Source of the DNA: a virus
Lineage: Duplodnaviria > Caudoviricetes
DNA: 57,831 nt
Reading direction: 5' to 3' (one strand)
IMG/VR virus record: IMGVR_UViG_3300006789_000027
Location: 1 to 57,831 of that record
The notes under the pieces are model-generated. The model was not told where the DNA came from and ran no database searches. It saw nothing but the letters and a program-made list of their open reading frames with translations. This document shows positions 5,232-40,870 of this stretch, one piece after another (the first letter of the stretch is position 1; each line of letters begins with the position of its first letter). The position numbers were made by a program, and so were the translations under genes.

Positions 5232-5232
5232 T

Positions 5233-5895: not shown

Positions 5896-5904
5896 TAGAT
5901 CAAA

Positions 5905-22232: not shown

Positions 22233-22786
22233 AAAAAAGTCAAAGCAAGGTGCAAAAAAGTCAAAGCAATACCCTGATGAAAGATTTCCTGTCAGCTCTA
22301 AATGTAATTTCTATAGTTGCCATGACAATCACATCTTTTCCTTCGTGGTCCAGTATCATGTTTCTATGGTCTTTCTTTGCCCATATTGTATATGTGATAT
22401 ACTACGAAAAACCCTTAACCTAAAAAAGTCAAAGGACATGTCAAAAAAGTCAAACAATAACCCTCCAATGGAATATCTGTATCTTCTCATCGCAAAAGAA
22501 TTAGGACGCGATGGGACTCCTTCTCATAACGAAAAAATTCTTTCAGTCTATAAAAGTCAAAAGGATGCTGAAGTTATGATAGAGGCTCAAAATGAAAATA
22601 AAAGTAACTGGGGATTCAAAATCAACGAAACTGATAAGTTAGAGATTTTAGAAGTTCCTCGTGAAATTACTTTTGGACTTCAACTTCCGTCTTGGACAGA
22701 AGAAATGAAACGCATGGAAGAAATGCTTTCCGAAATGATGGAAAGTGTTTCTGAAACTGAAAAGCAAAGCGACTAAAAAAGTCAAA
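22233..22786. repeat. Cluster 1 of AAAA(AA)GTCAAA motif (6 copies)
   Basis: Copies at 22233, 22254, 22422, 22443, 22552, 22775; all in the same orientation. Confidence 0.85.
22438..22776 (+). CDS. Hypothetical protein
   Basis: ORF-track frame; start moved to ATG 22438. Confidence 0.55.
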   Translation: MSKKSNNNPPMEYLYLLIAKELGRDGTPSHNEKILSVYKSQKDAEVMIEAQNENKSNWGFKINETDKLEILEVPREITFGLQLPSWTEEMKRMEEMLSEMMESVSETEKQSD

Positions 22787-22814
22787 TCACACACAAAACC
22801 AATTTTATAAAATT

Positions 22815-23054
22815 ATGGAAATGAACGAACAAATTAGAGAACACCTTATGGATACTCTTAAAGCATATAAAGGAAGCATTGATGGCGTTGAGGATTTTAT
22901 CAAAAATCATTCTCAACAACTTGAAAATGCTAAGACTCATAAAAAAACTGTAGAATCCAAGATTGCTGACCTACAAGAACTTTTGGGTGTATCCGATGAG
23001 GATATGAAAACTGAAAATTCTGAGGACACAACGCCTGAAATGAAACTTGTTTAG
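22815..23054 (+). CDS. Small coiled-coil hypothetical protein
   Basis: 79-aa ORF after an A-rich leader. Confidence 0.6.
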   Translation: MEMNEQIREHLMDTLKAYKGSIDGVEDFIKNHSQQLENAKTHKKTVESKIADLQELLGVSDEDMKTENSEDTTPEMKLV

Positions 23055-23138
23055 GGGAGCCGGAAAGCCTGCCATTTTGGCAGTCGTATCTTGTGAAAAA
23101 ACCCCCACTAAACCAAAACTACTTTAGTTTTAGAAGCC

Positions 23139-23171
23139 GAAGGAATCCTAATAATATTTTAGGATTCCTTC
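23139..23171. terminator. Inverted repeat / terminator-like hairpin
   Basis: GAAGGAATCCTAA...TTAGGATTCCTTC perfect stem. Confidence 0.6.
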
Positions 23172-23416
23172 ACTCTTTTCCCATTAGCACAAAAAGAACA
23201 AAAAATCTTAGGAAAATATTAAAACATCGTAATGCTTACTTTCCTTACACTATTAAAGGGTAAGCACTTAAGGTTCTAAACATAATTCTTTTAGGTATAG
23301 GGCGAGACGAGGGCGAGTAGTCATAAACCCTTTATCTATAAGATAATAGCAAAAATATCTGCGAAATAAATACGAGAAAGTTTGATATTTTTTTTACTTT
23401 TGCCCTTTAATATACT

Positions 23417-23525
23417 GTAGGGAAAGGGAGGTTCGCCTTTGATTCACTCCTAAGTGGAGTTAGAGAAGGAAAGAATCTAACCTGATTTTCTAACCATAAT
23501 AAAAAAGGAACGCCCTGACCCTACA
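23417..23525 (+). ncRNA. Candidate structured RNA or 5' leader
   Basis: Ends pair (GTAGGG/CCCTAC, AGGG/CCCT, GTTC/GAAC, CCTTT/AAAGG) around two internal hairpins; starts 5 nt after CTTTAAT. Confidence 0.5.
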
Positions 23526-23553
23526 TTCACAAAAATCTTAAACAATAAAAAAA

Positions 23554-23835
23554 ATGGCTAAAACACCAATTTACTCTAAGTCTTTCCGATACCGCTCTAA
23601 CGGTTCTGAAAGCAATCGTCAAGTTCTTGTAACCGCACAAAACCAAAACACCCTGAAAGGGTTTGATATTACGGGAATGTCTCCTGCCAAGATTACTGAA
23701 ATTCAGTCTACTTGGAATCGTTATGCAAGTCGCAGTATGCCTTTAACCAAGAAAGAGTCTGCTGTGTTGAATCGAGTTTCTGCTCCATTCAAGTCTTTCA
23801 AGACGAGTCGGATTCGCTATTTCCACAACAACTAG
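23554..23835 (+). CDS. Small basic WYL-like (SH3/Sm-type fold) protein
   Basis: F.Y....S.R.V......L.GFD......FKSFK.SRI pattern. Confidence 0.45.
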   Translation: MAKTPIYSKSFRYRSNGSESNRQVLVTAQNQNTLKGFDITGMSPAKITEIQSTWNRYASRSMPLTKKESAVLNRVSAPFKSFKTSRIRYFHNN

Positions 23836-23851
23836 GATATAGTAATTTTGT

Positions 23852-23891
23852 AAATGCCTCCTAGATTCTTTCTGGGGGGCATTATTTTTTT
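23852..23891 (+). terminator. Rho-independent terminator
   Basis: AATGCCTCCTAGA...TCTGGGGGGCATT followed by a T-run. Confidence 0.7.
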
Positions 23892-23905
23892 GGTATTTTT
23901 CCAAG

Positions 23906-23940
23906 TTTATACTTGATATATTTTCATATTATGGTATAAT
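23906..23940 (+). promoter_or_regulatory. sigma70-type promoter (copy 1 of a 35-bp duplicate)
   Basis: TTGATA-16-TATAAT with TG extension; 34/35 identical to 26086-26120. Confidence 0.75.
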
Positions 23941-23998
23941 GGTAGCACCTAGAAAGGGAAAACCCCTCTCATAAACTCGTTTCATAAACAAAACAAAA

Positions 23999-24829
23999 AT
24001 GGCTTCTAACTTCGTAATTGACCCCGTAAAGAAAAAGATTCTTACGGAACTCGTAAACTCTGGCAAAAATACTCTTTTGACTGGAGGAACTGGATGTGGA
24101 AAAACAACTTTGGCAATCGAGATTGCTAAGGAACTTGGACTAAAACCAGTAGTTATCAACTGTGGCTCTACTCAAGATGCCCGTTCTTCTCTTTTGGGAT
24201 ACTTCACATTGAAAGACGGCGATACTGTTTTTCAAGAAGCGGATTTCCTGAAAGCAATTCAAGAAGAGAATACGCTTATCATCTTGGATGAATTGTCCCG
24301 TGCTTCTGATGATGCGTATAACATTATCTTTCCAATTTTGGATTTCCGCCAAGAAGTTCGTGTGGATGAAAAAGATGATGAGCGTATTGTTCAAGTAGCG
24401 GATAATGTAAAGTTCTTGGCTACGGCTAACATTGGAATTGAATATTCTTCTGCTCGTAGTATTGACCGTGCTTTACAAGACCGTTTTCTAACCTTCAACA
24501 TTCCTTATATCAAAGGAAATAAATTGAAAACCTATGTGAAAAAGCAATTTGATTCTGAGACTGCCGAGGCTTCAACAGAACTTTTCAAGTTATATGATTA
24601 CTCACATAAAATGTTTGACGAGTCAAAACTTTCTGCTCGCCTCTCAACGAGAATGATTTTGGATGTAGTGCCTTTAGTATCGAAATTTACTATTGGAGAA
24701 ATTCTCGACCATGTTATTCTTTCCATCTTCAAGCAAGATAGTTCTTCTATTATCACAGACGCAAATGTGTTACGGGAGTATGCTGATTCTCTTGGAGTTT
24801 ACAAAAAAACTAAAACTGCTACGGCTTAG
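23999..24829 (+). CDS. MoxR/CobS-like AAA+ ATPase
   Basis: LLTGGTGCGKT, LIILDELSRA, ATANIG.EY...IDRALQDRF, STR. Confidence 0.85.
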   Translation: MASNFVIDPVKKKILTELVNSGKNTLLTGGTGCGKTTLAIEIAKELGLKPVVINCGSTQDARSSLLGYFTLKDGDTVFQEADFLKAIQEENTLIILDELSRASDDAYNIIFPILDFRQEVRVDEKDDERIVQVADNVKFLATANIGIEYSSARSIDRALQDRFLTFNIPYIKGNKLKTYVKKQFDSETAEASTELFKLYDYSHKMFDESKLSARLSTRMILDVVPLVSKFTIGEILDHVILSIFKQDSSSIITDANVLREYADSLGVYKKTKTATA

Positions 24830-24831
24830 TA

Positions 24832-26061
24832 ATGGAAGATAACATTTTTGACGGCATCGAAGAAGTAGATGCTGAGTTTATGGAAAGGTGGCTTGGAGGG
24901 GCAAAGATTAACTCTTTGTCCCCCAAGACACTTTACGATATACAAATGCTTATTAAGCATTATTCCGATATCATTGTTCCAGACAAAAAACTTTCGGTTG
25001 AATTTCCAACTGAACAAGATGGATGTGCTAGAGCAAGTGTGGCAAACGGACAAGTTATCATTCCTACAAATCTTTTACAAGAAGGGCGTGTAGATGAAAC
25101 TATTGGATGTATGATTCACGAACTTCACCACATTAAACTTTCAGACTCTGAAAAGGATATCTGGCTAAAATGTTTTGTGTTTGTGTGTAAGGCATTAGAT
25201 TCGTTATTTATTGAAACTGAAAAAGGATATTACACTTCTCTAAAAGATGTAGTCCTTTCAGATTCCAGTTTATCTTTTGCGGATATCATGTCGGATAATC
25301 CACAAAATCCAAATGCTGATTTCTTGCGTCAGGCTTGTGATGATGTTGCGTTTCTTCTAAATGCTGTGGAGGATATTCGTATTGACGAGAAAACACCTCC
25401 CAACTTGAAAAAATACTTAGACAAGCAAACGGATAGAATCGGAAAAGAGTTTAAGGAAAAATACGATGAAGGAGATTTAGATGAAAATAATTTGATGAAC
25501 ATAGTTTTCAGATTATTATTTCATCATAAAGATGTAATTCACGATGATTTTATAGATTCTCGTTTTGGGGATAAAGAGTTTATTGTAAATTCTTCTCCTT
25601 CGGAATATACCCCTGTGGTATTTGACGCTTTCAAGAATGAATTGAGAAATCACATTGAAAATCTTTATCAGGACTCTAACAATACGGTTGGTAATTCTGA
25701 AAAGCAAGATGAACAAGGTATAGACATAATGGATATGTATCTTGGTGATGATATAAAAGAAAGCATTGAAGAACAACTTAAAGAACATTCGCAGGGAGAT
25801 AAGAATAAAGCATTTTCTTCATGCGGAGAAATTGAGTTTGATGATAAAGAATTGGGGGACGGACTTGTTAAATTCAGTCAAAACTCTAAAAAGGTTTCTG
25901 AGGAAATGATAAAGGTAATGAAAACAAAACCTCCTATCTTGCCAATACAAACCATTCTTGAAATAGACTCTTACGCCCGTATCAAAATTCACCAGACAAC
26001 TGAGTGTTTTGATGGCAAAAATGTAAATTACGCCTGTGTAGTTTACGATGACACAAAATAA
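24832..26061 (+). CDS. HEXXH metalloprotease-like (CobT N-terminal-like) protein
   Basis: HELHHI and LLNAVEDIRID motifs; adjacent to the MoxR-type ATPase. Confidence 0.7.
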   Translation: MEDNIFDGIEEVDAEFMERWLGGAKINSLSPKTLYDIQMLIKHYSDIIVPDKKLSVEFPTEQDGCARASVANGQVIIPTNLLQEGRVDETIGCMIHELHHIKLSDSEKDIWLKCFVFVCKALDSLFIETEKGYYTSLKDVVLSDSSLSFADIMSDNPQNPNADFLRQACDDVAFLLNAVEDIRIDEKTPPNLKKYLDKQTDRIGKEFKEKYDEGDLDENNLMNIVFRLLFHHKDVIHDDFIDSRFGDKEFIVNSSPSEYTPVVFDAFKNELRNHIENLYQDSNNTVGNSEKQDEQGIDIMDMYLGDDIKESIEEQLKEHSQGDKNKAFSSCGEIEFDDKELGDGLVKFSQNSKKVSEEMIKVMKTKPPILPIQTILEIDSYARIKIHQTTECFDGKNVNYACVVYDDTK

Positions 26062-26085
26062 AAAATAAATACCAAGATTTCCTAT

Positions 26086-26120
26086 TTTATACTTGATATA
26101 TTTTCATATTCTGGTATAAT
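26086..26120 (+). promoter_or_regulatory. sigma70-type promoter (copy 2)
   Basis: TTTATACTTGATATATTTTCATATTCTGGTATAAT. Confidence 0.75.
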
Positions 26121-26159
26121 ATAGGAGTCTTAAACCCAGAAACCCGTTTAACAACACCA

Positions 26160-26888
26160 ATGGCTACACAAAAAACTTTACAATACTATGAAATGAAACA
26201 TCCCCTAAAGGATGCGAAAATTCTTAGTCCAACTGCTCTTTCTCAAATTCCTAATTCTGATGTTGATGATTATGAGGTTGAACATGAGAAATATATTGTT
26301 CCTGCCTTCGACCATGATACTACTATTCTATCTGAACGCAAAAGCGAAGTTTTAGATTCTTTGAGAACCCTTTACGGTTCCCAAAGTAAAGAATACAAGT
26401 ATATGGAAAGGTCTTTTAGGAAAGGAGATGATAAGATTACCAACCATTATAACAAAAATGTTCCCCCGTCTTTACTAAGAAGAAAAATATCTGAGGCTCG
26501 TCAATTAGCAGAAGGAAATGGAGGATACAAGAAAGCATCTTCTGGAGTAGATTCTGATTCTATGGAGGATATTGACTCCGCAATCAAATTCTTAATTTCT
26601 GAAGGGTATGAATACGGAAAAGATTTTTCTTCTCATAACTCTGTTTCAATCGCAAATGCTCTTATTCCAGAGATTGCCGAAGAATACATTTTGGGGAAGA
26701 AAGAAATTGACGGAATGAAAATTCCTTCTGTGGATAATGACGGAGAGTGGACATATGATAGTGATATTTACTCATGTTCAGACATTCTCCTTTCTAATGA
26801 CTACAACCATGAACAAGTAAGATTGTCTTTCTTTATCGAAGAGGGGGAAATCAAAGTAATTCAAAACTGTGTCGGGGAAGATAACTAA
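26160..26888 (+). CDS. Hypothetical protein
   Basis: 242-aa ORF behind the duplicated promoter. Confidence 0.7.
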   Translation: MATQKTLQYYEMKHPLKDAKILSPTALSQIPNSDVDDYEVEHEKYIVPAFDHDTTILSERKSEVLDSLRTLYGSQSKEYKYMERSFRKGDDKITNHYNKNVPPSLLRRKISEARQLAEGNGGYKKASSGVDSDSMEDIDSAIKFLISEGYEYGKDFSSHNSVSIANALIPEIAEEYILGKKEIDGMKIPSVDNDGEWTYDSDIYSCSDILLSNDYNHEQVRLSFFIEEGEIKVIQNCVGEDN

Positions 26889-26890
26889 TT

Positions 26891-27799
26891 ATGCCGAGAA
26901 AGATAGAAAACGCCACTTTCTCATCAGAGTTTATGTTTGAAGAGAAAGTGTCTCCTGACCTTAAAAGATTCAGAGATGTTTTGTTTTCTAGGTTTTCTAG
27001 GCAAATCGGTTTGCTTTTAGAATCTAAACGACCTAGAAAACAAAATTCCACTAAAGGAAGATTGAATACTAGAATTGCGTATAGACACCCGTTTAGCGAT
27101 AATATCTTTTCTAAGTATGAGCATATTCCTTCTTCGGATACTACAATCGTAATGCTTATTGACGGTTCAGGAAGTATGAGCAGTAGAGATAGTTCTCGTT
27201 TCAGTAGAATCGACACTTGTAATGCTGTTTGTAGTGCCTTCGCAAAATCAGTAAAAAATGTTCTAAAGGATGAACTCAAAGTAGAAATTTTTGTAAAATC
27301 TGCTCCTGCGATAGAATCTGAGTCTTTAGGGGTAGCAGGTCAATTCCCAACACTAACAAGAATTTTCACTAATACAACCCCAAAGACTAATTCTGATTTT
27401 GATAAACTACTAGGACTAAACACATATTCTCCTATTACTGTTGATGGAGATGGCGTAGGAAGTTATACGGCAGAATATAGTGTTCTACCTGCTCTTATGG
27501 ATTGGGCAGAAAATAACATCACCACTAAAAATATGATTGTGTTCAACCTTACTGATGGTGGAACTTATATTAACTTAGGAACAAATCATTTTCGTTTTGG
27601 TAACTCAGATACTGGTCTGATGAAATCGAAATATCTTAGAGGTGTCCCTAATCTCTCACTTTGCTTAGGTAATGATGTAGCCAGAAAGGAATTAACCAGT
27701 ATGTATGGCAAGGATGTAATCTTCTCTGATGGAGAAGGAGATTTTGTTCCTGCCATGTTCAAGACCCTAACTCGATTCGTGGATGAAAGCGTCCAATAA
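26891..27799 (+). CDS. VWA-domain (CobT C-terminal-like) protein
   Basis: GRLN..IF preceding LIDGSGSMS (MIDAS) and LTDG. Confidence 0.8.
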   Translation: MPRKIENATFSSEFMFEEKVSPDLKRFRDVLFSRFSRQIGLLLESKRPRKQNSTKGRLNTRIAYRHPFSDNIFSKYEHIPSSDTTIVMLIDGSGSMSSRDSSRFSRIDTCNAVCSAFAKSVKNVLKDELKVEIFVKSAPAIESESLGVAGQFPTLTRIFTNTTPKTNSDFDKLLGLNTYSPITVDGDGVGSYTAEYSVLPALMDWAENNITTKNMIVFNLTDGGTYINLGTNHFRFGNSDTGLMKSKYLRGVPNLSLCLGNDVARKELTSMYGKDVIFSDGEGDFVPAMFKTLTRFVDESVQ

Positions 27800-27805
27800 A
27801 TAAAA

Positions 27806-28474
27806 ATGACTAACACACCAAAAAACTTTAGACAAAAGAAAACACCTTCACTTACAAAGGGAGGAAAATTACCAAATAGTTCTTTTTACCATACACTTTC
27901 CCAAACAATAGATTTATTGGGATGGAAAGATACTGGAAATGCCTATTTAGATGAATTCAAGAGCGACTCGTTAGAATTTTTTCAATGTCCAACAATAGGA
28001 AAAATTTCTATTCTAGATTCCAAGAAAACGAATTATACTCTTGCAGGAACTGAATTAGTAATTCCTACTGGATTTCTCTTAGACCTAACCTCACATCTTT
28101 ATGACATGATAGAGAAAGAGGACTCCACCGCTCAACCTAGCAGGCATTGTGAATATCGCAAAGTAATTTATAAGTTATTAGATATTATTTACTTTGTAAA
28201 AGAAAGTGCTTACGATGTGGTTTCCACTAAAGAACACAAAAAACTTACCCATAGATATTCTTATCGAAGGAATAGAAATGTAGACTTGGGAGCGTCTACT
28301 TTTCCAATGCTGTCAAGAAGATATGAAAATACTTCTTTTTACAATACGGCACAAGAATTATATTCTGAAGTTATGGATTTTTCTGATTGGAACCTTGATT
28401 TGAGTTTTCCTTTGAGGGGATTGCCTTTGAATGTCTTGAAAAGTGAAATTTTACAATACCGTATGTCGCAATGA
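27806..28474 (+). CDS. Hypothetical protein
   Basis: 222-aa ORF in operon. Confidence 0.65.
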   Translation: MTNTPKNFRQKKTPSLTKGGKLPNSSFYHTLSQTIDLLGWKDTGNAYLDEFKSDSLEFFQCPTIGKISILDSKKTNYTLAGTELVIPTGFLLDLTSHLYDMIEKEDSTAQPSRHCEYRKVIYKLLDIIYFVKESAYDVVSTKEHKKLTHRYSYRRNRNVDLGASTFPMLSRRYENTSFYNTAQELYSEVMDFSDWNLDLSFPLRGLPLNVLKSEILQYRMSQ

Positions 28475-28911
28475 AAATCTATCCTATAAGTAAACGCCTA
28501 CGAAATGTTTTTGGTAGACTGGCTTTTGAGTTAGATGAATCTTTAGAACTTGCAAAACATTTGGATGTCCCTAAAGGGGAATATGAATTGTTTGAGGATG
28601 ACATAAACATTCTAAAAGAATTTGTAACTTGTTTTGATTGGAATGGGGGTGTTTCTCAACGAGGAGAAATGCCCTCTTGTTGGAATAAAGATACTATCTT
28701 TGATAACTATGAGGAACATGAACAAAGATTCAATTTTCCTTATGAGCGTTCCCAATTAGAATTTGATTGGGATGCTAAGAAAACCGAAGAAATTAAATGC
28801 CCTCTCTGTAAAGGAAAGGGCGTTGAAGAAGAAAAAAATAAAGGTTACAGAAGGTATAAATGCCATTCTTGTAACGGTAACAAAAAAATTGAAATTGAGA
28901 TAGGAGAATAA
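28471..28911 (+). CDS. Hypothetical protein with DnaJ-type Zn motifs
   Basis: CPLCKGKG...CHSCNGNK. Confidence 0.65.
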   Translation: MKIYPISKRLRNVFGRLAFELDESLELAKHLDVPKGEYELFEDDINILKEFVTCFDWNGGVSQRGEMPSCWNKDTIFDNYEEHEQRFNFPYERSQLEFDWDAKKTEEIKCPLCKGKGVEEEKNKGYRRYKCHSCNGNKKIEIEIGE

Positions 28912-28913
28912 CG

Positions 28914-29501
28914 ATGCCAAACTGGTGTTCTAACATACTAACGATTGAAGGTTGTAAGGAAGAAGTAGATAATTTTGTTGAAACAGCAAAAGGATACGGA
29001 TATAAGCCTGAGAAGCAAAATACAAAAGATGGTTTCACGCCATTTGATTTTAACCAATTTATTCCTATGCCTCCAGAAGTAATTGAAAATGGTTACAATG
29101 GAGAAAAAGGAATGGAAGGTGTAGAATCTGGTTACTTGTGGGAAAATAATAATTGGGGCGTGAAATGGGGTGCTTGCGAAACTTGTATGTCCCGAAATGG
29201 AGATACCGAAGCAGTATATTCTTTTGATACAGCATGGAGTCCCCCAATCAAAATGATGGATGCTTTTATAGAGCAATACCCGTCTTTAACATTTACTTTA
29301 CAGTATGAAGAACTGGGAATGATGTTTGAGGGAACTTGTATCGCAACGAACGGAAGTGTTTCTGATGAGTGTAAAGAAATCACAGTAGAGTCTTTACATG
29401 AGCAAGGTTGGCACGATGACCCAGAAGATTATGGTGATGAATGTGAATTGTGCGAACAAGAACTAATTGCTAATAACATTGAGGAAGATTACAATGACTG
29501 A
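28914..29501 (+). CDS. DUF1281/YubB ferredoxin-like domain protein
   Basis: MPNWCSNIL, FDFN..IPMP, W...NWGVKW, FDTAWSPP, YEE.G. Confidence 0.75.
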   Translation: MPNWCSNILTIEGCKEEVDNFVETAKGYGYKPEKQNTKDGFTPFDFNQFIPMPPEVIENGYNGEKGMEGVESGYLWENNNWGVKWGACETCMSRNGDTEAVYSFDTAWSPPIKMMDAFIEQYPSLTFTLQYEELGMMFEGTCIATNGSVSDECKEITVESLHEQGWHDDPEDYGDECELCEQELIANNIEEDYND

Positions 29502-30063
29502 TAAACAATATGTAACGACAAATGACCAATTAAAGAAAATTGAGAAAAAGTATGGAAGGTTAATCTTTACTATTGCTCATAGAATTGGAGGAGATTCCGT
29601 AGTAAATTCGTTTGAGGATTCTGTCCAAGAACTTTATATTTCTTCTTTAGATGCCTGTGAAGCATATGAAAGAAAAACTGAAAAGTTATTTGACGAGTTC
29701 TTTGGAACAGATGAATTTGATAAGTATATCAAATCTGTTCTTTGGAATAAAAAGAATAATCAAGGAAAGCAAATCACAAAGAAACTTGGGATAAATCGAC
29801 ACGCAACTCTAAATGAAGAAATTTTAGAGCATGACCCTGCGTTAGAATATGAATTGTCTGATGTGAGTAGTATGTTGGCAGAAGTAGATGGGATTACAGA
29901 AGAGGGAGAGAGGCTAATTGAAATGATTGTTTCCGACCACAAACTCGTAAAGCCTAACGGAAGCCTAAACATTTCTAAAATCTCAAGAGATATGGGAATG
30001 ACCAAAAAGGATGTAACGCTTTTGGTTTCTCAACTTAAATCTATTTTGGTGGAGTATTACTAA
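29494..30063 (+). CDS. Phage sigma-70/ECF-like factor
   Basis: Region-2-like KYGRLIFTIAHR...EDSVQELYI...F..YI; C-terminal HTH-like ISKISRDMGMTKKDV. Confidence 0.55.
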   Translation: MTDKQYVTTNDQLKKIEKKYGRLIFTIAHRIGGDSVVNSFEDSVQELYISSLDACEAYERKTEKLFDEFFGTDEFDKYIKSVLWNKKNNQGKQITKKLGINRHATLNEEILEHDPALEYELSDVSSMLAEVDGITEEGERLIEMIVSDHKLVKPNGSLNISKISRDMGMTKKDVTLLVSQLKSILVEYY

Positions 30064-30919
30064 TGAGATACTTACTAAAAGAATTTGAATTTTGGTGTGA
30101 ACGATGGTTCAGCACATTTGCGTTTATCAGGACGATTGTATGCTTGGCATTTTTACTTTTGGCGGTGCTAAGATGAAAATTCCTCCTTATTGTAAAATGT
30201 GTAAAGGGTTTCAGATAATGGCATATTTTCCCAAGCAAAAGAGGTATTGGGGGGACGCATGGGTTCCTATAAACTCATCTTACGGCTACCCATACACTTA
30301 CAAAGGTTTTGCTATCAACAAAGCAAATCATATACTGACTTGGAATAGAAATGCGGATGCTTATATACAAATAATAGACTTACAAACTGGAGGTGTTGTT
30401 TGGGAATCAGAAAATATGAAAGAGGTAACACAATGAAAAAAGCAATACTAATGGGTGGGCTTGCAGGATTACTTGTAGCAAATGTTTTCGCTACGATAAA
30501 AACAAAAATGGTGGTAACTGAACTACAAAAACAAGTATTTCATATCGACACGCATAGGCAAGTAATGGAAAGGCATACTGGGGATAATGTTTATTGTGTT
30601 CTATGTTCAGAATACAATCAATGGAAACTGGTTCAACAAACCTCTTCTTCAAGCACATACCAAAATAACGAAGAAGAAATGATAATCATAAAACATCTAA
30701 AAAACTAAAGAAATGAAATCAAAATACAGAAGCCACGGAACATTCTCAAACGAGAGAAAAGCACAGAAGAAATTAGATTCTCTTATTGTCCTGCATGGAG
30801 AATATGCGGATGGGGATAAGGGTGAAATCCAAAGGTTTTTCATAAAGAAAAGAACTTGGATGGGAAAGGATAAATCCAGATACCAAGTATCGGAACTAAT
30901 AAGGAAAGGAAGTAAGTAA
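30063..30919 (+). CDS. Four small overlapping hypothetical genes (30063-30176, 30173-30436, 30433-30708, 30713-30919)
   Basis: Chain of TAATG/ATGA overlaps; first gene is a 37-aa hydrophobic peptide not in the ORF track. Confidence 0.55.
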
Positions 30920-31320
30920 TGATTGAGTGTAACGATTGTTTTACAGGATGTATATTTTGTGATACCACAGGCATAAAAACTGACCATCACATTATTGTAA
31001 AGGACGAATATCCAATAACAAAAGGACATTTGCTTGTCATACCTAAACGCCATTTGCTTCATCTTTCCCAATACAACACTCAAGAATGGAATGATTTATA
31101 TCATGCTATTAACGAAGCAAAACAGATGTGTTCTTTCGCTACCGACTTCAACATTGGAATAAACGATGGAATACGAGCAGGACAAACAATAGAGCATTTG
31201 CATTGGCATATAATCCCACGCACAGAAAATGATGGTGGAAAACCCTGTGGAGTTAGAAATGTTTTTTCTGATAAAGCAGATTACCGCAACAAACAAAAAA
31301 AGGAAGTAAGTAATGATTGA
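30919..31320 (+). CDS. HIT family hydrolase
   Basis: CIFC, YPITKGHLLVIPKRH, NDG..AGQTIEHLHWHIIPR. Confidence 0.9.
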   Translation: MIECNDCFTGCIFCDTTGIKTDHHIIVKDEYPITKGHLLVIPKRHLLHLSQYNTQEWNDLYHAINEAKQMCSFATDFNIGINDGIRAGQTIEHLHWHIIPRTENDGGKPCGVRNVFSDKADYRNKQKKEVSND

Positions 31321-32881
31321 ATACGACACAATGCCCCAAGAACTTCAAAAGTTTTACGAAAAAAAGGGAAAAGAAGAAGGAATAACAGGTGAGCAGTTTT
31401 ACATAAGAGAACAAAAATCCAAACACATTTTCATAAGAAATTTATTTGAGAGTAAAACTAGAGAGGAAATAAATATTCATCTTAGTGATGTTCACTCACA
31501 TCTTATGGATATTTCTGATTACTTAAACATTATCGACTCTCCCCACGCAAAAGAAGCATCAAAGATATCAGGTGATTTTCTTAATTTTATTTCCTGCTTT
31601 GCGATTTTGTGTGATGAATCCAAACGGGTTGGTTGGCATTGGGAAGAAGAAGATTTTTGCGGGAGGAAAATAAACAAATGAAACTAATAGGAATGATAAT
31701 GTTGGCAACAATGACCGTGCCAATCAAAACAGAAATTGAAACAGTTTCACACGGAGTATTCTATGTTGAAGCATGGGATTGCGAAGCAGGATTACTTGCA
31801 AAGGGAACTAAGGAAAAGAGGGTAATGTTCAATATGGAGCATATCCTATACGCAGAAGAAAAAGGAAAAACTACTGTTATTACCGTTGAAGATGGTAATG
31901 CTACTAGAGAGTTTCTAATCAAAATGAAGTTTGAGGATACCATGAAAGGTATTATCTCAACATATACTAAAAGTGGAGGGAAATAAATGAGAACCGAAGA
32001 AGAATTGAAATGGTATGAAGAAGAAATGAGAAGAGAAGAAGAAGCAGGGCTGAATATGTTATCCCTTGTAGCCCTAACTCTTCTAGTAACCACAATACTT
32101 TTGGCGAGAAAAATGATGCCAATTTCAGAACCAGAACCACAGAAACAAGAGACTGAAGTCTCTAGGCTTCAAGAAAGAAAGGGTGGAGGACAAGGTGAAC
32201 TTTACGAATGTAAACCTCAAGTAACTATCGTATCTAACTACGATATACATAAGCATCATCAAATGGTATTGAACATAGTATCAGAACCATTGATTTGTGG
32301 AGTGTGTAGAGAAAACCAAAATCATTTTTTTGGAGGAAACTAAATGAATTTCAGCGAAGAAGGAACAAGCCCACGATTGCTATCATATTTGAGAATAGCA
32401 TTCATACTAACAACACTAATAATAGCAGGAATGTTCATGTCCTGTTCAATACCAGAATGGTATTATGAAGAGCAGTTAATAGCACATCAGTATCATGTAG
32501 AACTAAGATACCAATACGAAGATTGTGATTTCTGCCAATACGGAAGAACCCAAAACTTTTACTAAAATGGAATACGCACTAATAACAATAGCAGTCTTGA
32601 TTCTAATAGTCCAAATAGCCCAACTATTCAGGTTGGCAAAGATGGAGAAAGACATCGAGATTCTGGAAGATTTCGCTGAGTTATCAGCGATGAAAATAGA
32701 GGAACTGAAAACTACTACGAGTAAGTTCGACACCCCATTTTAATTTTTCCCGCCGAGAACAATGAGTAATAAGTATAGAGACAATAGTAAGAATACTTGT
32801 AAAGAACTAGAAGATAATCCTAACAAGATAACACTTACAGAGATTCTATTTATCCTCATTTGTATCATTGTATTACTATAG
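31313..32881 (+). CDS. Six small hypothetical genes (31313-31681, 31678-31986, 31987-32343, 32344-32565, 32567-32743, 32762-32881), mostly with TM/signal segments
   Basis: Tightly packed ORFs, several with GGAGG upstream. Confidence 0.55.
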
Positions 32882-33117
32882 GATAATATACACATACACA
32901 CCAGTATTACCTATTATTACTTGTATGGAGTAAGGTAAGAATACAACTAAAAAAAGGAAAGATTAAATAGATTTATATGTAGATGTTGGTTACGGATTTA
33001 GAAGAGTATGTTATAATGGTTCAAGAAATGTATGATGTTTTGGTATGAATATCTTATTTTTTTTCCTATTTGTTGATATTTTGTGTTTTTTAATTTTCAA
33101 CTATAGTTCATCTAAAA

Positions 33118-33192
33118 AATTAAATACGAAGAATATCGTAATAAACCGAATTAAATACGAAGAAATACCACTCTTTTCGAATTAAATACGAA
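33118..33192. repeat. Three AATTAAATACGAA direct repeats with exact 31-bp period
   Basis: Copies start at 33118, 33149, 33180 in an AT-rich non-coding gap. Confidence 0.8.
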
Positions 33193-33400
33193 CATAATCG
33201 TATATTTTGATTTTTTGTTTCCAAAAAAGTCAAAGCCCTTAATAGCAAAAACCCCCTTTAACAGAAAAGTCAAAGGGGGTTTCTACCATATATGGTATGG
33301 GTAGTAAATATTTTCCGAGGTTCATAAAGTATCACACACAACATATGGTATATGTATATTAAAATTTTTTCGTGCGGATAGTAAAAAGTCAAAGGAGGAC

Positions 33401-33477
33401 TGGCACACCCGATAGGATTCGAACCTATACTCTACAGATTAGAAGTCTGTTGCTTTATCCAATTAAGCCACGGGTGC
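33401..33477 (-). tRNA. tRNA-Arg(UCU) with encoded CCA
   Basis: Reverse complement GCACCCGTGGCTTAATTGGATAAAGCAACAGACTTCTAATCTGTAGAGTATAGGTTCGAATCCTATCGGGTGTGCCA folds as a cloverleaf; anticodon TCT; GTTCGAATC T-loop. Confidence 0.95.
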
Positions 33478-33852
33478 TTATTCCAGCCAAAAAAAATTTA
33501 ATTCTTATGGTAATACAGTAGAGAAGATACCCCATAGTAAAAAAGTCAAATGGGGAATAGGTAAAAGAAAAATGCCATGAGAAATCCAATTTAATTTTTA
33601 GATTTCCCACGGCTATCACCTTTATTTAATTTTCTCCTAAAAAGAACAAATGCCAAGAGGGGTTCCCCCTCCTTGGCGATAAGCATTATACCATATTTGT
33701 AAGCCCTTGTCAATAAAGAACTTACATTTGTTGTAAAGTATTTTTGATTTTTGGCACTTATTTTGGTATTATTTTTTGATTGTAACTGCTTATGTGGCAG
33801 GGATTTAAGTCAAATCCGGGCCGAGAACCTGCCATTTTGGCAAGAAGGGAGC

Positions 33853-34080
33853 CTAAGCCCCCTCCTCGATGTAGTGTGGTGTAATGTTATCCCATCTTTC
33901 CCGTCGCAAGGAATATCCGTCATCTTTCAATGACCATTCCCCCTTACAATGAATACAGGATATCGTTACAGGTTTGCGTTCTGAAAGAAAGAAACTTCCG
34001 CATACTTGGCACTCAGGACATTTCCGAGAGCCGAGAGATAGACCCTCAAGGAGCCTATCCCTCTTTTCCCTATATGCCAC
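33853..34080 (-). CDS. Early zinc-ribbon protein
   Basis: CPECQVCG...CIHC; start abuts the upstream stop. Confidence 0.6.
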   Translation of the reverse strand: MAYREKRDRLLEGLSLGSRKCPECQVCGSFFLSERKPVTISCIHCKGEWSLKDDGYSLRRERWDNITPHYIEEGA

Positions 34081-34454
34081 TATTGAAGTTCCCCCAAGTC
34101 CATATTTGCCACCATAGAATCGACATCCAATTCTGCGATGACCTCTTGCTTGCGTTCCGAGATATCATCCAAGTTAGACTTCATTTCCTCTTGGATACGC
34201 TCTGCGTTCTCAAGATTATGTTCAGCCTCTACGACTTGGCTCTTAAGCCGAGCAATACGGACAGAAAGACCTTTTTCTGGGTCAAGCCACTTCATAGCCT
34301 TTGCCAATTCGACCTTAGCCGTCTTTTCTTCCGAGAGAATTTCTACCATGCGAGGGTCATCTGCGATTTGCTTTTGAGCGACCTTAACCTTCAAGGCGTT
34401 TACCTTTTCAAGTGCTTCGGAGAGTAACTGTTGGGGAGTTCTGTGTTTAGCCAT
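34080..34454 (-). CDS. Early coiled-coil protein
   Basis: 124 aa, downstream of the promoter at 34513-34540. Confidence 0.7.
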   Translation of the reverse strand: MAKHRTPQQLLSEALEKVNALKVKVAQKQIADDPRMVEILSEEKTAKVELAKAMKWLDPEKGLSVRIARLKSQVVEAEHNLENAERIQEEMKSNLDDISERKQEVIAELDVDSMVANMDLGELQ

Positions 34455-34923
34455 TTTCTTTACCTATTACGAGTTTAGGAGAATGAGGGTGGTGTCCCTC
34501 TGTGATGACCCTATTATACCATCTTTCTGGCTCAGGTCAAGTAAAAAAGTCAAAAAGCGTGAAAATTCTCTAAAAAACTTTGGGAGGGGGGGAGATTAAA
34601 GAGATGCCCCTAGTATAACATATTTCCGAGCCATGTCAAGCAAAAAAGTCAAACCTCTTTAGAAAATCCACCAGCCCCAAAATAGCATTAATCCGGATCC
34701 GCAGCTGGCTCCCTGGTAAAAAAATCCGGTGGCTGCCAAAACGGCAGACCCTGGGCCCGTGGAAAAAGTCAAAGAGTAAAATGGGGGGAGTTTGGAATAG
34801 CGAACCTATTAAGAATCTTTGCATCGATTCAGTTCTACACAGTTGGAACAACCGTGCCAAACTCCTCCCCAAGTGCTTTGAAAGAGAGGCTAGACATAAG
34901 CCTAGCCCCCCCATATTCATTAG

Positions 34924-35103
34924 TTATGCATAATGCCCACAACTCCGCAGATTGCGATTAACATACGAGCGAGCGTTGTTCTTTGAGTTAAATCGCAGGG
35001 TATGGGTTTTTCCTTTGGAAACATAACTCACCGTATGAGCGGTCATGTTATTAGGAACCTTGCGAATGTGAATTTGGCGAGCAGGTGTTTTCGTGTTATT
35101 CAT
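34924..35103 (-). CDS. 59-aa basic early protein (not in ORF track)
   Basis: MNNTKTPARQIHIRKVP...NLRSCGHYA; ATG lies 6 nt after TATAAT. Confidence 0.65.
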   Translation of the reverse strand: MNNTKTPARQIHIRKVPNNMTAHTVSYVSKGKTHTLRFNSKNNARSYVNRNLRSCGHYA

Positions 35104-35248
35104 GAAAGTATTATACCATATCCTATGCCCAAGTCAAGAGAATATCTTATAAAATCAAGAAAATCCCAAAAAACAAATGTTCCGGGATCTGCCAAAATGG
35201 CAGACCCTGGGCCCGTCAAAAGTGGTGATTAGACCCCCTGGGCTTGCT

Positions 35249-35863
35249 TTAATGGGCAATATAGGCTATGGTATGAACTTTTTTAGACCAACACGCCCGA
35301 CAATCCTTACATTTTCCTTTCCGAGCAAAGGCACGGCATAAGGAATAACCCTTGGAAGGGATAAAATTATCTTCGGATTGTATGATTGTGCTAGTATGAG
35401 AACCCGATACCTTTCCACCAATAACGCTATCGCTAGAATATCGCACCACTACATTTTCTGGCATTTTCTCTAATACCGCTTGGATATTAGGAATTTTATA
35501 AGTGCGGGTAGGAATCCAGTGTTTCGTATTAGGCGTAGCCTTACAAACCCTTACAATTTTCTCCGCTAGAATTTCATTCTCAATATCCCCAGAATCAAAC
35601 CACCGAAAGAATTTTCCCTTTCCAATTGCTTTCACCATAGCATCAACCCAACCGCTACGCTTCCAATCTTCCATATTGTATTCCCGTAAGTCTTTTACAG
35701 CCCCAAACTTATAGCGTCCCTTAGTAGCGTAGCAACCTTGGCAAGCATCGACTAGGGTAACGCCATCGGACTTAAAAGCCCCTTGGCAAGTGGTAACTGC
35801 TGGAAGCGACCAAGATTTACAGGGCATTTTAGAGGCATTAGAGAGTTTGGGGCTTGCTTTCAT
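35249..35863 (-). CDS. Phage Gp88-like (Cys-rich, radical-SAM-like) protein
   Basis: SKMP..SWSLPA..TC, CQGCYA, FRWFDSGD, HWIPTR, C..CRACW. Confidence 0.75.
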   Translation of the reverse strand: MKASPKLSNASKMPCKSWSLPAVTTCQGAFKSDGVTLVDACQGCYATKGRYKFGAVKDLREYNMEDWKRSGWVDAMVKAIGKGKFFRWFDSGDIENEILAEKIVRVCKATPNTKHWIPTRTYKIPNIQAVLEKMPENVVVRYSSDSVIGGKVSGSHTSTIIQSEDNFIPSKGYSLCRAFARKGKCKDCRACWSKKVHTIAYIAH

Positions 35864-36009
35864 GAAAGTATTTTACCATATCCACAGGCTCAGGTCAAGA
35901 ACTATTTTGAGGAATTTACCGGGCTCAAGAAAGTATCTGCCAGCCAGGCTGCCAAAATGGCAGACCCTTGGCCCGAGGAAGGGAGCCGAAGCCCCCCTCC
36001 CCTAAATTC

Positions 36010-36216
36010 CTACCATTCCTCTATTTCGTGGCACTCCATTTCAGCCTGAGATTGAGCATCAGCCCAAGCCTCAAAAGTTTCCTCGCCAGAGTCGCAATCG
36101 CAAAAAGTGGTGGATTGGACATCAGAGCCCATTTCAAGAATTCCATCATCGCCACAATTAGAACACACAGGGATATCGTGAATTTCCCCGAGAAGGTCGT
36201 TGGTATCGTATTTCAT
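36010..36216 (-). CDS. Acidic early protein with CxxC/CxC
   Basis: CSNC...FCDC; leaderless-type start. Confidence 0.65.
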   Translation of the reverse strand: MKYDTNDLLGEIHDIPVCSNCGDDGILEMGSDVQSTTFCDCDSGEETFEAWADAQSQAEMECHEIEEW

Positions 36217-36431
36217 ATTGGCATTATACAGTATTCTGAGCCAAAATCAAGTAAAATAAGCAGAAAATCTCAAAAAACAAATATTCCGGGCAGCATGCTA
36301 AAACGGCAGCGCCCTGGGCCCGCAAAAATGAAAAAACCCCACTCCGTCCAGAGCGTTTACATGCATGGGAGGAGTGAGGTAGGGGGATTATTTGGTAGGC
36401 TATCCCCCTTGTAGCCCTATGAAACATACCC

Positions 36432-36662
36432 CTAGAATCCTTGAGTTGCCCAGTAAGGCTTCTTGGATGAGCGATAGTTATTTCCTTCGTGGTTATTGTC
36501 GTGGATAGACAAAACCTTGGGAAGCCTACGCCGTAGAGCAACATAGATTTCTAGTTTTTTCAAGGTTATCCATCTTTGGTTGTCCCTTGATTCTGCGGAG
36601 TTCCAAGATTTCGCAAAAGAGCGACCTGCAAGGATTGAGAGGTAGTTGATGATGTATTTCAT
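36432..36662 (-). CDS. Early hypothetical protein
   Basis: ATG lies 6 nt after TATAAT. Confidence 0.65.
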   Translation of the reverse strand: MKYIINYLSILAGRSFAKSWNSAESRDNQRWITLKKLEIYVALRRRLPKVLSIHDNNHEGNNYRSSKKPYWATQGF

Positions 36663-36704
36663 GAGAGTATTATAACAGATTTGAGAGGTTCTGTCAAGCC
36701 TTTT

Positions 36705-36899
36705 CTAGGAATTCTTTATCAAAATGTCCTGAATCCAATTAACAAACCGTCCACTATCAAAAGCAGGGTTTGAGCGTTCGCACATATCACAAAAGGACAA
36801 TATGATAGAATCCGTTTGGTCTCTGTCAGCATTAATATTGACGATGATTTCAGCACAGGTGTCAGCCAATGCTTGGAAGTGTTGGCGGGTCATTTTCAT
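36705..36899 (-). CDS. Early hypothetical protein
   Basis: MKMTRQHFQALA...NPAFDSGRF; start corrected to the ATG 7 nt after TATAAT. Confidence 0.7.
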   Translation of the reverse strand: MKMTRQHFQALADTCAEIIVNINADRDQTDSIILSFCDMCERSNPAFDSGRFVNWIQDILIKNS

Positions 36900-36953
36900 G
36901 TGTTCTATTATACAGTAGCGAAAGGGTGCTGTCAAGGAAAATCTAGGAAATCT

Positions 36954-37157
36954 TTAGTAGTTTACAGACTCGCAAGCCAATTTGTAGACCAAACTGCGAC
37001 CCAGTTCCGAATCGGTGAAATCTTCAAGTTCTTGGTCAGTAAGAGGAGTGCCATCCTCACGTTCGCCATAGCAGGCGAAAGCATCGCAGAAATCGAAAGC
37101 GTCTTCCATATCGACACCATCGACACGGATTGAATTTAGGTTGATTAGGTTTTTCAT
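36954..37157 (-). CDS. Acidic early protein (paralog A)
   Basis: DAFDFCDAF...DGTPLTDQELEDFTDS; start corrected to lie behind the promoter. Confidence 0.7.
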   Translation of the reverse strand: MKNLINLNSIRVDGVDMEDAFDFCDAFACYGEREDGTPLTDQELEDFTDSELGRSLVYKLACESVNY

Positions 37158-37309
37158 TATGTAATCATTATACCATCGCGGGAGTGAGTTGTCAAGTAAA
37201 AAATCAGAGAAATTTCGGGCCGAATATCTGCCAATTTGGCAGGAAACGGGACTTGAAGCACTACAAAGTAGCCTAGACTTATACAAGCCCCTATGAAAAT
37301 ATACCCTTC

Positions 37310-37681
37310 CTAGTCCATCTCGAACATCTCATCCAAGTCCGAGGAGGTTAGCGTCCCGTGTAAATCCTTGATAGTTCTTTGAAAAGCATTGTAGTATCTC
37401 ACGGGAATGTTGATTATTTTCATAATATCGTCAAGCGTTTCACCTTTCTGTTCCATTATAGCAAACAGCGTGTTAATTGTAAACACATCTGCCACTTGCC
37501 GAGGGGACAAAGCCTCGAAATCAAAATCTGCTTCCATGTTGAAAAAGTGCTTCATTATGGATTCTTTCACTTCCTGAGAAGTATGGGCAATGGCTTTGAT
37601 TACAGAGGTTTCGGCTATGGTGAGGTTGCCTACTGAGGTAAAGGAGGACAAATCGAAAGTAAAGGTTTCAGAGTCGTTCAT
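37310..37681 (-). CDS. Early hypothetical protein
   Basis: ATG 37681 lies 6 nt after TATAAT; promoter is inside the 3' end of the upstream gene. Confidence 0.65.
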   Translation of the reverse strand: MNDSETFTFDLSSFTSVGNLTIAETSVIKAIAHTSQEVKESIMKHFFNMEADFDFEALSPRQVADVFTINTLFAIMEQKGETLDDIMKIINIPVRYYNAFQRTIKDLHGTLTSSDLDEMFEMD

Positions 37682-37695
37682 GCTCATATTATACC

Positions 37696-38100
37696 CTAGC
37701 GATTGAGTTTCGTCAAGACCTTTTTCCAGTATTTTATTGTGGCTTGTTTCTTGTAGCCTTTTGGTCCCCCGTTATGGATACGGGCAACCTTCTCGGCATC
37801 GAATTTTGCGGGATTAGTCCATGCCTCACGAGCATAGCGTTTCATATAGGCATCGAATACCTTGATAGCATAGTCCCTATTGAAACAGTCCTTATAGGAA
37901 CCCCCTATATTACTACGCTCGATAGCATCCGTGTGATATATTTCCCAAATCTGTAAGCATCCGATAGCATTACCATTATCACCACGAGCATTATCATTAC
38001 CATTACTTTCAACAAGGATAAGAGCATTGACCAATTCATTTTGTTGGGGTGTGAGAATTACTTGCGGAACAGCAAGCATGAGGAGGAGAGGTGTAATCAT
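37696..38100 (-). CDS. Lysozyme-like protein (i-type/destabilase or SLT-like) with signal peptide
   Basis: ILVESNG (catalytic E), GCLQI..Y, ARIHNGGPKG, YW.KV. Confidence 0.75.
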   Translation of the reverse strand: MITPLLLMLAVPQVILTPQQNELVNALILVESNGNDNARGDNGNAIGCLQIWEIYHTDAIERSNIGGSYKDCFNRDYAIKVFDAYMKRYAREAWTNPAKFDAEKVARIHNGGPKGYKKQATIKYWKKVLTKLNR

Positions 38101-38291
38101 GAACATATTATACCACAATTCTAGGCTAGGTCAAGCATAAAATGAGAAATATTTGAAAATGCGGCCTAGGACCTGCCATTTTGGCAGCTAGAAGAAAATC
38201 ATGTCCAAGCATCTACAGCATAGCATCACGCATATAAAGCATATGCCAAGCAGTCCCGTAAGTTCCAAGCGGTCAAACATCTCCTCCCACA

Positions 38292-38504
38292 TTATTCTTC
38301 CCCTGGGTCACTGAATACGCTATCTTGGCATACTTGGCACATTCCACTAATACTATACTCTTTCCGAGAGATATCATCCATTTGAGTTAATGCTTGCAGG
38401 CTAATCTCATCATTGCAGGTAACGCATAAACCATTCAGGATACGGTCAACCTTTTCAGGAAACAGAGAAAAAGCGGGCTTAGAGAGGTCGGGAGGGAGAG
38501 GCAT
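38292..38504 (-). CDS. Early Zn-binding protein
   Basis: CVTC...EYSISGMCQVCQD. Confidence 0.65.
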   Translation of the reverse strand: MPLPPDLSKPAFSLFPEKVDRILNGLCVTCNDEISLQALTQMDDISRKEYSISGMCQVCQDSVFSDPGEE

Positions 38505-38569
38505 TAGTATTCGTCCGTTCCGAAGGGGAAGAGGATGCAGTCCCAGAAGAGGGTGATGATTTGTTTCAT
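38504..38569 (-). CDS. 21-aa leader peptide (not in ORF track)
   Basis: MKQIITLFWDCILFPFGTDEY; ATG 6 nt after TATAAT; TAATG overlap with the next gene. Confidence 0.55.
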   Translation of the reverse strand: MKQIITLFWDCILFPFGTDEY

Positions 38570-38611
38570 GCGTGTATTATATCAGAGCGTTAGACTTGCG
38601 TCAAGTAAAAA

Positions 38612-38839
38612 CTAGGCGTTTTTACAAGCGGCAGAGTGTAGATGCATACCGCCAGCATCCGAATCGGTGAGGGTATCCAATTGATTATTATCGAGAGGTG
38701 TGCCATCCTTAAAGGTAGCACTTGAGATAAACGCATCCGAGTTATCGAAAGCATCGAGATTTTCCATGACCATAGAGGACACAAGAACGGGCTGGGGGAG
38801 AGCCGTGAGAGTAATCGTAGGGGTATTATCGTATTTCAT
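38612..38839 (-). CDS. Acidic early protein (paralog B)
   Basis: DAFDNSDAF...DGTPLDNNQLDTLTDS; start corrected. Confidence 0.7.
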   Translation of the reverse strand: MKYDNTPTITLTALPQPVLVSSMVMENLDAFDNSDAFISSATFKDGTPLDNNQLDTLTDSDAGGMHLHSAACKNA

Positions 38840-39061
38840 GCTTATATTATACCGTCGCCATGTGTCCCTGTCAAGCATAAAATCCTAAATCCCACCGGAG
38901 AATACCACGCTTTGGGTCCCATGCCAGAATGGCAGGTCGCATAATATACAGATATCTTGCCTCCCTTTTAAGGGTCCCCTTTTTTGTTAAGGGACTCCTA
39001 GAAAAAAAATAAAATCCAATAAAATCCCAAATAAAATCCAATAAAAATACAAAAAATGAGC

Positions 39062-39069
39062 TATAAATA
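39062..39069 (+). promoter_or_regulatory. T4-type late promoter TATAAATA
   Basis: Exact T4 late consensus, 7 nt upstream of ATG 39077; another exact copy at 56449 and TA(A/T/G)ATA variants before other structural genes. Confidence 0.6.
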
Positions 39070-39076
39070 TAATACA

Positions 39077-39430: not shown

Positions 39431-39440
39431 ATAAAGTACT

Positions 39441-40865: not shown

Positions 40866-40870
40866 TTCCG

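Follow-up and report, generated by a model that had tools for sequence, protein, structure and literature searches.

The virus record IMGVR_UViG_3300006789_000027, which derives from marine metagenomes and was analysed over its whole length of 57,831 bases ('the window'), raises the question of why a tailed phage would keep one block of its DNA nearly free of short palindromes that are common in the remainder. The block (the 'purged zone') comprises 16,756 bases (22300-39055), and a preliminary description had noted by eye that it has no GTAC and next to no AGCT, GATC, CCGG or GGCC. Our counts confirm this, and the effect is stronger than had been claimed: when the zone is compared with the other 41,075 bases, GTAC is found 0 versus 102 times, AGCT 2 versus 202, GATC 2 versus 94, ACGT 1 versus 81, CCGG 8 versus 43, GGCC 7 versus 16, GCGC 1 versus 21 and CGCG 2 versus 16. 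The four words GTAC, ACGT, GATC and AGCT ('core words') have 484 sites on the contig and only 5 of them in the zone; from the density of the flanks, about 195 would be expected between 22294 and 39059. Under a second-order Markov model derived from the zone's own sequence, 45.6 GTAC, 32.2 ACGT, 54.5 GATC and 41.7 AGCT would be expected, and shortages are likewise seen of GCGC (1 seen, 16.5 expected), CGCG (2; 13.1), TGCA (15; 62.5), GGCC (7; 28.8), CCGG (8; 19.3) and TTAA (60; 100.8). Among the 136 strand-symmetric 4-mers, the 13 with the lowest observed-to-expected ratio (O/E) in the zone are palindromic without exception, and outside the zone the ratio is 0.8-1.0 except for GATC (0.63) and GGCC (0.33). 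The earlier word list is correct for its five entries and for the tolerance of TCGA (35 sites; O/E 0.76) and CATG (46 sites; O/E 0.69), but it had overlooked ACGT, GCGC and CGCG, and TGCA, which it had regarded as tolerated, is not. Longer words are also scarce in the zone when compared with the outside (TTTAAA 0 versus 47, GTATAC 0 versus 18, GCNGC 8 versus 82).

The loss does not follow from the encoded proteins. Shuffling the synonymous codons of 31 open reading frames (ORFs) of the zone (200 shuffles) restores the sites: 33.0±4.9 GTAC where none is seen, 29.6 ACGT (1 seen), 45.1 GATC (2 seen) and 39.5 AGCT (1 seen). Hence, the depletion resides in the choice and order of codons, that is, at the level of DNA and not of protein composition, and purifying selection at this level keeps the zone nearly free of Type II-type palindromes. 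The transition at either edge takes less than 100 bases (the last site on the left is at 22294, the next regular site on the right at 39059), both edges coincide with a change of promoter class, and the zone is the only one of its kind in the 57.8 kilobases (kb) of the record. The longest gap without any core word spans 12,402 bases (22294 to 34696; 'strict core' in Table 1), while the longest outside the zone measures 997.

Relatives were retrieved from IMG/VR and JGI metagenomes with the 409-residue protein of the zone (Table 1) as an anchor, and further ones by a search with a GP88-family protein; eight of twelve metagenome loci were examined (four of 2.3-4.1 kb were left out as too short), and of the contigs L026 (116.8 kb) and L031 (107.9 kb) a portion of 17-20 kb each was seen. 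All six lineages with at least 7 kb on each side of the anchor (G001/L022, L033, L026, L027, L031 and G002; anchor identity 39-52%) exhibit a purged gap: word density is normal until 2.5-2.8 kb upstream of the anchor, where a gap of 10-17 kb begins, and in G001 the gene that precedes the left edge is homologous to the one preceding it in the window. Both edges can be seen in G002 (67.7 kb), which is free of GTAC from 46287 to 63489 (17.2 kb); the right edge is visible only there and, in part, in G004. No second zone occurs in the remainders of G002 and G001 or in the 63.6 kb of G004, which lie on the right-hand side of the zone. Synonymous shuffles in G001 and G002 confirm selection at the DNA level, with 0 GTAC and 1 AGCT in the zone of G002 versus 45 each after shuffling, and with 183 GTAC (176 shuffled) and 194 AGCT (182 shuffled) outside. 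Since silent sites are saturated at this divergence, the zone must be upheld by selection at a fixed place and is not a recent import. As a negative control, 30 of the 32 loci of at least 11 kb that carry a GP88 homologue from unrelated phages show no zone; of the 80 loci in total, the remaining 48 fell below this length and were left unscored, except for L041, which was scored separately.

The sets of avoided words are lineage-specific. L031 keeps GTAC and AGCT and purges ACGT, TGCA and CCGG, and L027 keeps AGCT. Depletion of GATC is limited to the zone in the window and in G001, and the word is absent from the entire sequence of G002 (0 in 67.7 kb versus about 145 in shuffled genes outside the zone), G004, L026, L031, L033, L005-L012 and L014. 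GGCC is low genome-wide everywhere, as its ratio outside the zone of the window and the counts for G002 (2 seen versus 80 shuffled) exemplify.

In the zone of the window, all 15 CCGG/GGCC sites and all four GATC/AGCT sites adjoin CTGCCA-N3-TGGCAG hairpins or a degenerate copy thereof, and the earlier remark that residual AGCT, GATC, CCGG and GGCC sites stand beside these elements holds if that copy is counted. The ACGT at 37059 and the CGCG at 22507 and 37177 stand away from the hairpins.

The contig has 15 near-consensus sigma-70 promoters, of which 14 lie in the zone. Two on the + strand (23913 and 26093) drive operons that run to about 32.7 kb, and 12 are on the - strand at 33.7-38.9 kb, each set being directed inward from its own edge, so that the promoters do not reveal which way the DNA enters. 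Nine of the 15 promoter matches on the - strand open an ORF of at least 30 residues 6-9 nucleotides past the -10 box, and these at least nine leaderless early messages hint that the host translates such messages well. Because host-type promoters are concentrated in the zone, and because its right edge lies at a late promoter, the zone appears to be the region read by the host polymerase; the best reading is that an uncultured marine phage of the T4 type has its early region here, transcribed by the host sigma-70 RNA polymerase. The match with host sigma-70 promoters and small early genes that had been proposed for the zone is thereby borne out by both the promoters and the leaderless cassettes. 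The + strand operons encode, in addition to the genes in Table 1, an acidic protein with a DUF1281_C domain, a protein with a weak match to sigma region 2 and a HIT protein; the - strand cassettes at 34.9-38.9 kb encode, among others, the GP88-family protein and a lysozyme-like protein. Acidic proteins are encoded at 28914-29501, 36954-37286, 37310-37687 and 38292-38504. Clusters of CobT and VWA proteins in the Atlas provide a lead, and only that, for a putative CobT-like nature of the 409-residue protein. The gene for tRNA-Arg(TCT) in this early block stands behind a hairpin rich in guanine and cytosine (GC) as well as behind promoter 33713, and an Rfam scan yielded nothing beyond tRNA.

A further hallmark of the zone is a polar motif. 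AAAAAGTCAAA has 11 exact copies in the window, all on the + strand and all between 22234 and 34773, and the strictly purged core is flanked on either side by a conserved array of the polar 10-mer AAAAGTCAAA; the second array occupies the region in which the first residual sites return. Array 1 is present at the left edge of five relatives (G001, L026, L033, L027 and L031), always on the + strand, and in the first four of these a second array follows on the same strand 10-11 kb to its right; the contig of L031 stops before that position. At the left edge of G002, four to five copies of a variant, TATAAGTCA, are found. The left-edge array is a possible pause or boundary signal. Read on the - strand, the motif becomes TTTGACTTTT, which in array 2 stands just upstream of some -35 boxes, and its sequence context suggests that it may instead be a promoter-associated protein site and not an entry signal.

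Taken together, these findings raise the question of what selection acts upon. If the whole genome entered at once and unmodified, the roughly 480 sites outside the zone should be as lethal as any within it, which leaves staged entry, survivable cuts, or a modification of the remaining DNA. The explanation that we favour, and to which we would grant an even chance, is staged or polar entry with a restriction-proofed early block: the early block would have to survive and be expressed before protection made by the phage covers the remaining genome; entry would start at a fixed end of the genome, in the manner of T5 (first-step transfer) or T7-like phages; and of the two edges of the zone, one would be this end and entry would pause at the other. 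The sharpness of the edges makes polar or staged entry from a fixed end the most likely route. The preliminary description had likewise proposed that this segment meets restriction first, a view that fits the early promoters and genes as well as the selection seen in six of six lineages; the part of it that made the whole zone a terminal repeat does not stand.

The latter conclusion rests on sequencing depth, which is available as per-contig values from four public runs (X2, X3, X5 and X8; four study codes, possibly one campaign) among the 24 runs that hold this DNA. In all four, the depth is flat from the left flank across the 22.3-kb edge into the zone (X2: 61.8, 59.9 and 56.2; X3: 9.3, 7.4, 13, 8.8 and 10.4; X5: 18.6, 17.1, 20.7, 17.9 and 19.6; X8: 50.1, 60.2, 58.5, 47.4 and 53.8), and is raised only from 31753 to about 39.0 kb (X2: 98-126; X3: 20-21.5; X5: 34-44; X8: 93.5-98.5). 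The drop at 38.76-39.07 kb, which was back-calculated by hand from contigs straddling the edge on the assumption of double depth followed by single depth, matches the edge of the zone. That the ratio stays constant although abundance varies six-fold suggests that each genome carries two copies and hence a terminal repeat of 7.3 kb. Three observations speak against such a repeat: extra contigs of 90-99% likeness map to 30.7-39.4 kb (depth 44-50 in X2, 14 in X5 and 50 in X8); their depth and the main depth add up to about the observed value, so that the step may instead reflect a second, co-occurring strain; and the contigs break at 31705/31753 with other letters preceding 31753, unlike what a true genome end would give. 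The two readings are about evenly balanced. An exact word of 38 bases at 31753 matched no viral contig.

It is tempting to speculate about a more specific version of staged entry, which we put forward tentatively. Phages of this marine T4-type clade would possess fixed ends and deliver their DNA in two steps, with the site-free block of ~17 kb first, partly as the 7.3-kb terminal repeat, with the AAAAGTCAAA arrays as pause or boundary signals, and with the remaining genome after an early protein has disarmed restriction. If true, this would amount to a T5-like strategy on a T4-like chassis, brought about by unrelated cis signals.

Several points weigh against staged entry. (i) The main counter-argument is the T4-type terminase, which by homology implies headful packaging and hence no fixed first end; in line with this, a published study argues that avoidance in a leading region should not matter for headful phages (PMC12455610). 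(ii) In the relatives the purge is weaker in the right part with its small cassettes (one 2-kb bin of G002 holds 12 ACGT), yet it is this part that would enter first under the version with a terminal repeat. (iii) DnaA boxes like those of the T5 stop signal are not enriched in the window (20 matches with at most one mismatch versus 16.5 expected) and are not clustered at the edges. (iv) No known anti-restriction family, including Ocr-like proteins, was detected by Pfam among 32 ORFs of the zone, 15 of which were also compared with PHROGs; most of them belong to no family at all, and neither resource offered a function that would explain protection. (v) When the zone is divided into transcription units (13.8 kb) and gaps between them (3.0 kb), the gaps keep CCGG (8 versus 6.0 expected) and GGCC (7 versus 10.2) at expected frequency, and if any cut were to kill, these 15 sites should not be tolerated.

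The last point keeps alive the reading that selection guards each early unit and not the whole molecule, which ranks second after staged entry and which we consider rather unlikely. It holds that the whole genome enters at once and that each early transcription unit must stay uncut to make the early proteins, cuts elsewhere being few, or repaired once early proteins (inhibitors of restriction or of exonucleases, repair functions) exist. Such a scheme would be compatible with a T4-type headful terminase and with zone edges that both lie at changes of promoter class, and it would account for the placement of the residual sites: for nine words, the units contain 16 sites versus 255 expected (3 versus 208 without TGCA; CCGG 0 versus 17.4 and GGCC 0 versus 20.5) and the gaps 22 versus 52. 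However, it requires the sites outside the zone to be survivable, and GTAC, ACGT, GATC and AGCT are depleted in the gaps as well (4 versus 24.7 expected). Moreover, the stem and flank of the conserved hairpin contain CCGG and GGCC, so that functional constraint can suffice to explain the residual sites.

It is less probable still that the purged words are targets of early nucleases of the phage itself, which would degrade host DNA and spare the early block. Davison's preprint proposes this for protein A1 and the first-step-transfer DNA of T5 (10.1101/866236), and many genes of the zone have no assigned function. Nevertheless, ten or more words would demand many specificities, the zone yielded no nuclease domain, even close lineages have different word lists, as one would expect for shifting host repertoires, and the phage would still have to protect the remainder of its genome or bring it in late.

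Quite improbable, too, is the reading in which the remaining genome is base-modified in the virion and the early block is not, for example because the host RNA polymerase cannot read modified DNA. A putative large gene cluster for sugar and aminoethylphosphonate and a glutamine-synthetase-like gene on the contig might be taken in its favour, as might the result that no DNA methyltransferase of the three families PF01555, PF00145 and PF02086 was found in the five fragmentary records searched (about 280 kb in total), which, at 26-62% completeness, are weak evidence for the absence of a gene. No modification is known to be restricted to a single part of a genome, and the analysis identified no DNA-modifying enzyme.

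Early regions of T4-type phages are plastic, and the GC content of the two halves of the zone differs (35% and 43%), so that one might think of a block newly acquired from a lineage that avoids these words genome-wide. This is highly improbable: the same block occupies the same place in all six lineages, the purge extends over both compositional halves, the clade has seen its word lists change, and with saturated synonymous sites the absence must be maintained. Finally, SPO1 and T5 carry host-takeover genes in long terminal repeats, and the right 7.3 kb do stand at about double depth, yet the flat depth from 22.3 to 31.7 kb in four of four runs leaves the whole zone as one such repeat the least probable of all readings.

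The closest parallel is provided by T5 and BF23 (Tequintavirus), which are reported to be restricted only through sites in their first-step-transfer DNA (PMC10644984), an early block with host-type promoters and without restriction sites, sites elsewhere being harmless (PMC10644984; 10.1101/866236). The likeness tested here is that sites are absent from the block and present in the rest of the genome. In addition, both systems have a repeat-rich cis region at the inner border, and here, too, a terminal repeat may overlap the block. The differences are considerable: T5, a siphovirus, has a terminase type of its own and a block that makes up 7.9% of the genome and lies wholly inside a 10.1-kb repeat, whereas the present phage has a T4-type terminase (and putative baseplate genes), a zone of about 15% of the estimated genome, and a repeat of at most the right 7.3 kb. 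The T5 stop signal, moreover, contains a conserved array of DnaA boxes and inverted repeats; the repeat array at the left edge of the zone is a different, polar one. Transfer in T5 proceeds in two steps and depends on the pre-early proteins A1 and A2. The block would thus work like the first-step-transfer DNA of T5 and yet not be a member of that system. SPO1, a large myovirus, has at a genome end, in its terminal redundancy, a host-takeover module in which small early genes are arrayed and every gene has its own strong host-type promoter and terminator. The arrays of small early genes with host-type promoters are shared; evidence for hydroxymethyluracil DNA or a 13-kb repeat is not seen here. 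Murciaviruses, with a T7-like leading region, are reported to escape a Type I system when its motif is missing from that region (PMC12455610); this would resemble our case in that restriction acts sub-genomically on the DNA entering first, together with early anti-defence genes. There, a single Type I motif, a few kb and 40-kb podoviruses with short terminal repeats are involved; here, at least ten Type II-type words and 16.7 kb.

T5 and T7-like phages have shown that DNA is under the strongest pressure from restriction where it is exposed first, a principle that has been argued not to hold for headful T4-type phages. The present T4-type clade displays it in extreme form, with ten or more words, about 15% of the genome, and conservation over deep divergence. 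A limited literature search found the work on T5, BF23 and Murciaviruses and studies of genome-wide avoidance, and no multi-word purged early block in a T4-type phage. Either packaging and injection depart from what the terminase predicts, or something besides the order of entry is the reason why the early genes are protected. The purge can also serve as a marker, readable from sequence alone, of the early or first-exposed region of uncultured phages; the restriction repertoire of marine hosts is recorded in the word lists of the individual lineages; and new anti-restriction genes may be sought in the block.

Table 1. Features of the purged zone and its surroundings (positions in the window)
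Feature	Position	Strand	Remarks
Array 1 of polar motif AAAAAGTCAAA	22234..22786	+	5 exact and 1 near copy; on left edge of zone
Strict core	22295..34695		12.4 kb with zero GTAC/ACGT/GATC/AGCT; longest gap; contains + strand operons conserved in relatives (synteny with G001)
Purged zone	22300..39055		5 core-word sites versus about 195 expected
CTGCCA-N3-TGGCAG hairpins (n = 8)	23069, 33829, 34733, 35189, 35949, 37228, 38173, 38921 (span 23069..38935)		8 matches versus 0.05 expected
Extended -10 sigma-70-type promoter	23913..23940	+	Before AAA/CobT-like operon; near-identical copy at 26093-26120 (repeat family D10)
AAA_5 (CobS/MoxR-like) ATPase	23999..24829	+	PF07728, 1.4e-14; phrog_249, 1.2e-27
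409-residue protein with HELHH motif	24832..26061	+	Anchor for finding relatives; no Pfam or PHROG match
Block of raised depth	31753..39060		7.3 kb at about 1.7-2.2x; 4 of 4 public runs
Array 2 of polar motif AAAAAGTCAAA	33224..34773	+	6 exact and 1 near copy; right end of strict core
tRNA-Arg(TCT)	33401..33477	-	Downstream of 12/12 consensus promoter at 33713
Leaderless early cassettes, one promoter per gene (TATAAT, 6-9 nucleotides, ATG)	34924..38874	-	Promoter scan
Degenerate hairpin copy	36291-36321		Of CTGCCA-N3-TGGCAG
T4-type late promoter word TATAAATA	39062..39079	+	7 nucleotides upstream of ATG 39077; first late-cluster gene; right edge of zone
Large terminase, T4-type	45911..47398	+	Pfam Terminase_6N and Terminase_6C; 6.9 kb right of zone

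Some observations concern the record and its relatives at large. CheckV estimates the completeness of the record at 53%, which corresponds to a full genome of roughly 110 kb or more. The best matches of the terminase are gp17 proteins of cyanomyophages (35-36% identity), and megablast against a collection of isolated phages returned no close DNA relative of the record. Searches of viral contigs yielded no relatives for two proteins encoded on the right flank (39441-40865 and 41793-42635) or for the L031 anchor protein, and the far ends of G002 and G004 do not overlap in tblastx. Eight of ten related contigs (G001, L022, L026, L027, L031, L033, G003 and G004) end in the small-cassette part of the zone, for which repeats, strain variation or real genome ends are possible causes; we did not count these ends as a sign of genome ends, since promoter/terminator repeats of 40-50 bases can break assemblies.

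Outside the zone, the putative glycosyltransferase/phosphonate cluster and the glutamine-synthetase-like gene (PF00120, 5.4e-22) have the coordinates 1619-9415 and 20434-21477; they might act on DNA or on a surface glycan. At 50344-50574, eight copies of a repeat with a period of 27 nucleotides encode a stretch rich in Glu, Gly, Val and Pro within a 553-residue ORF. The gene for a 474-residue protein just to the right of the zone (39376-40042) contains internal repeats of 40 nucleotides (family D3), and its contig depth is far below that of its neighbours in three of four runs (31 in X2, 10.5 in X5 and 5.6 in X8); it is probably hypervariable. Three consecutive genes of the late cluster open alike (39434-39500, 40864-40930 and 41189-41222; repeat families D6 and D7) and share an N-terminal module.

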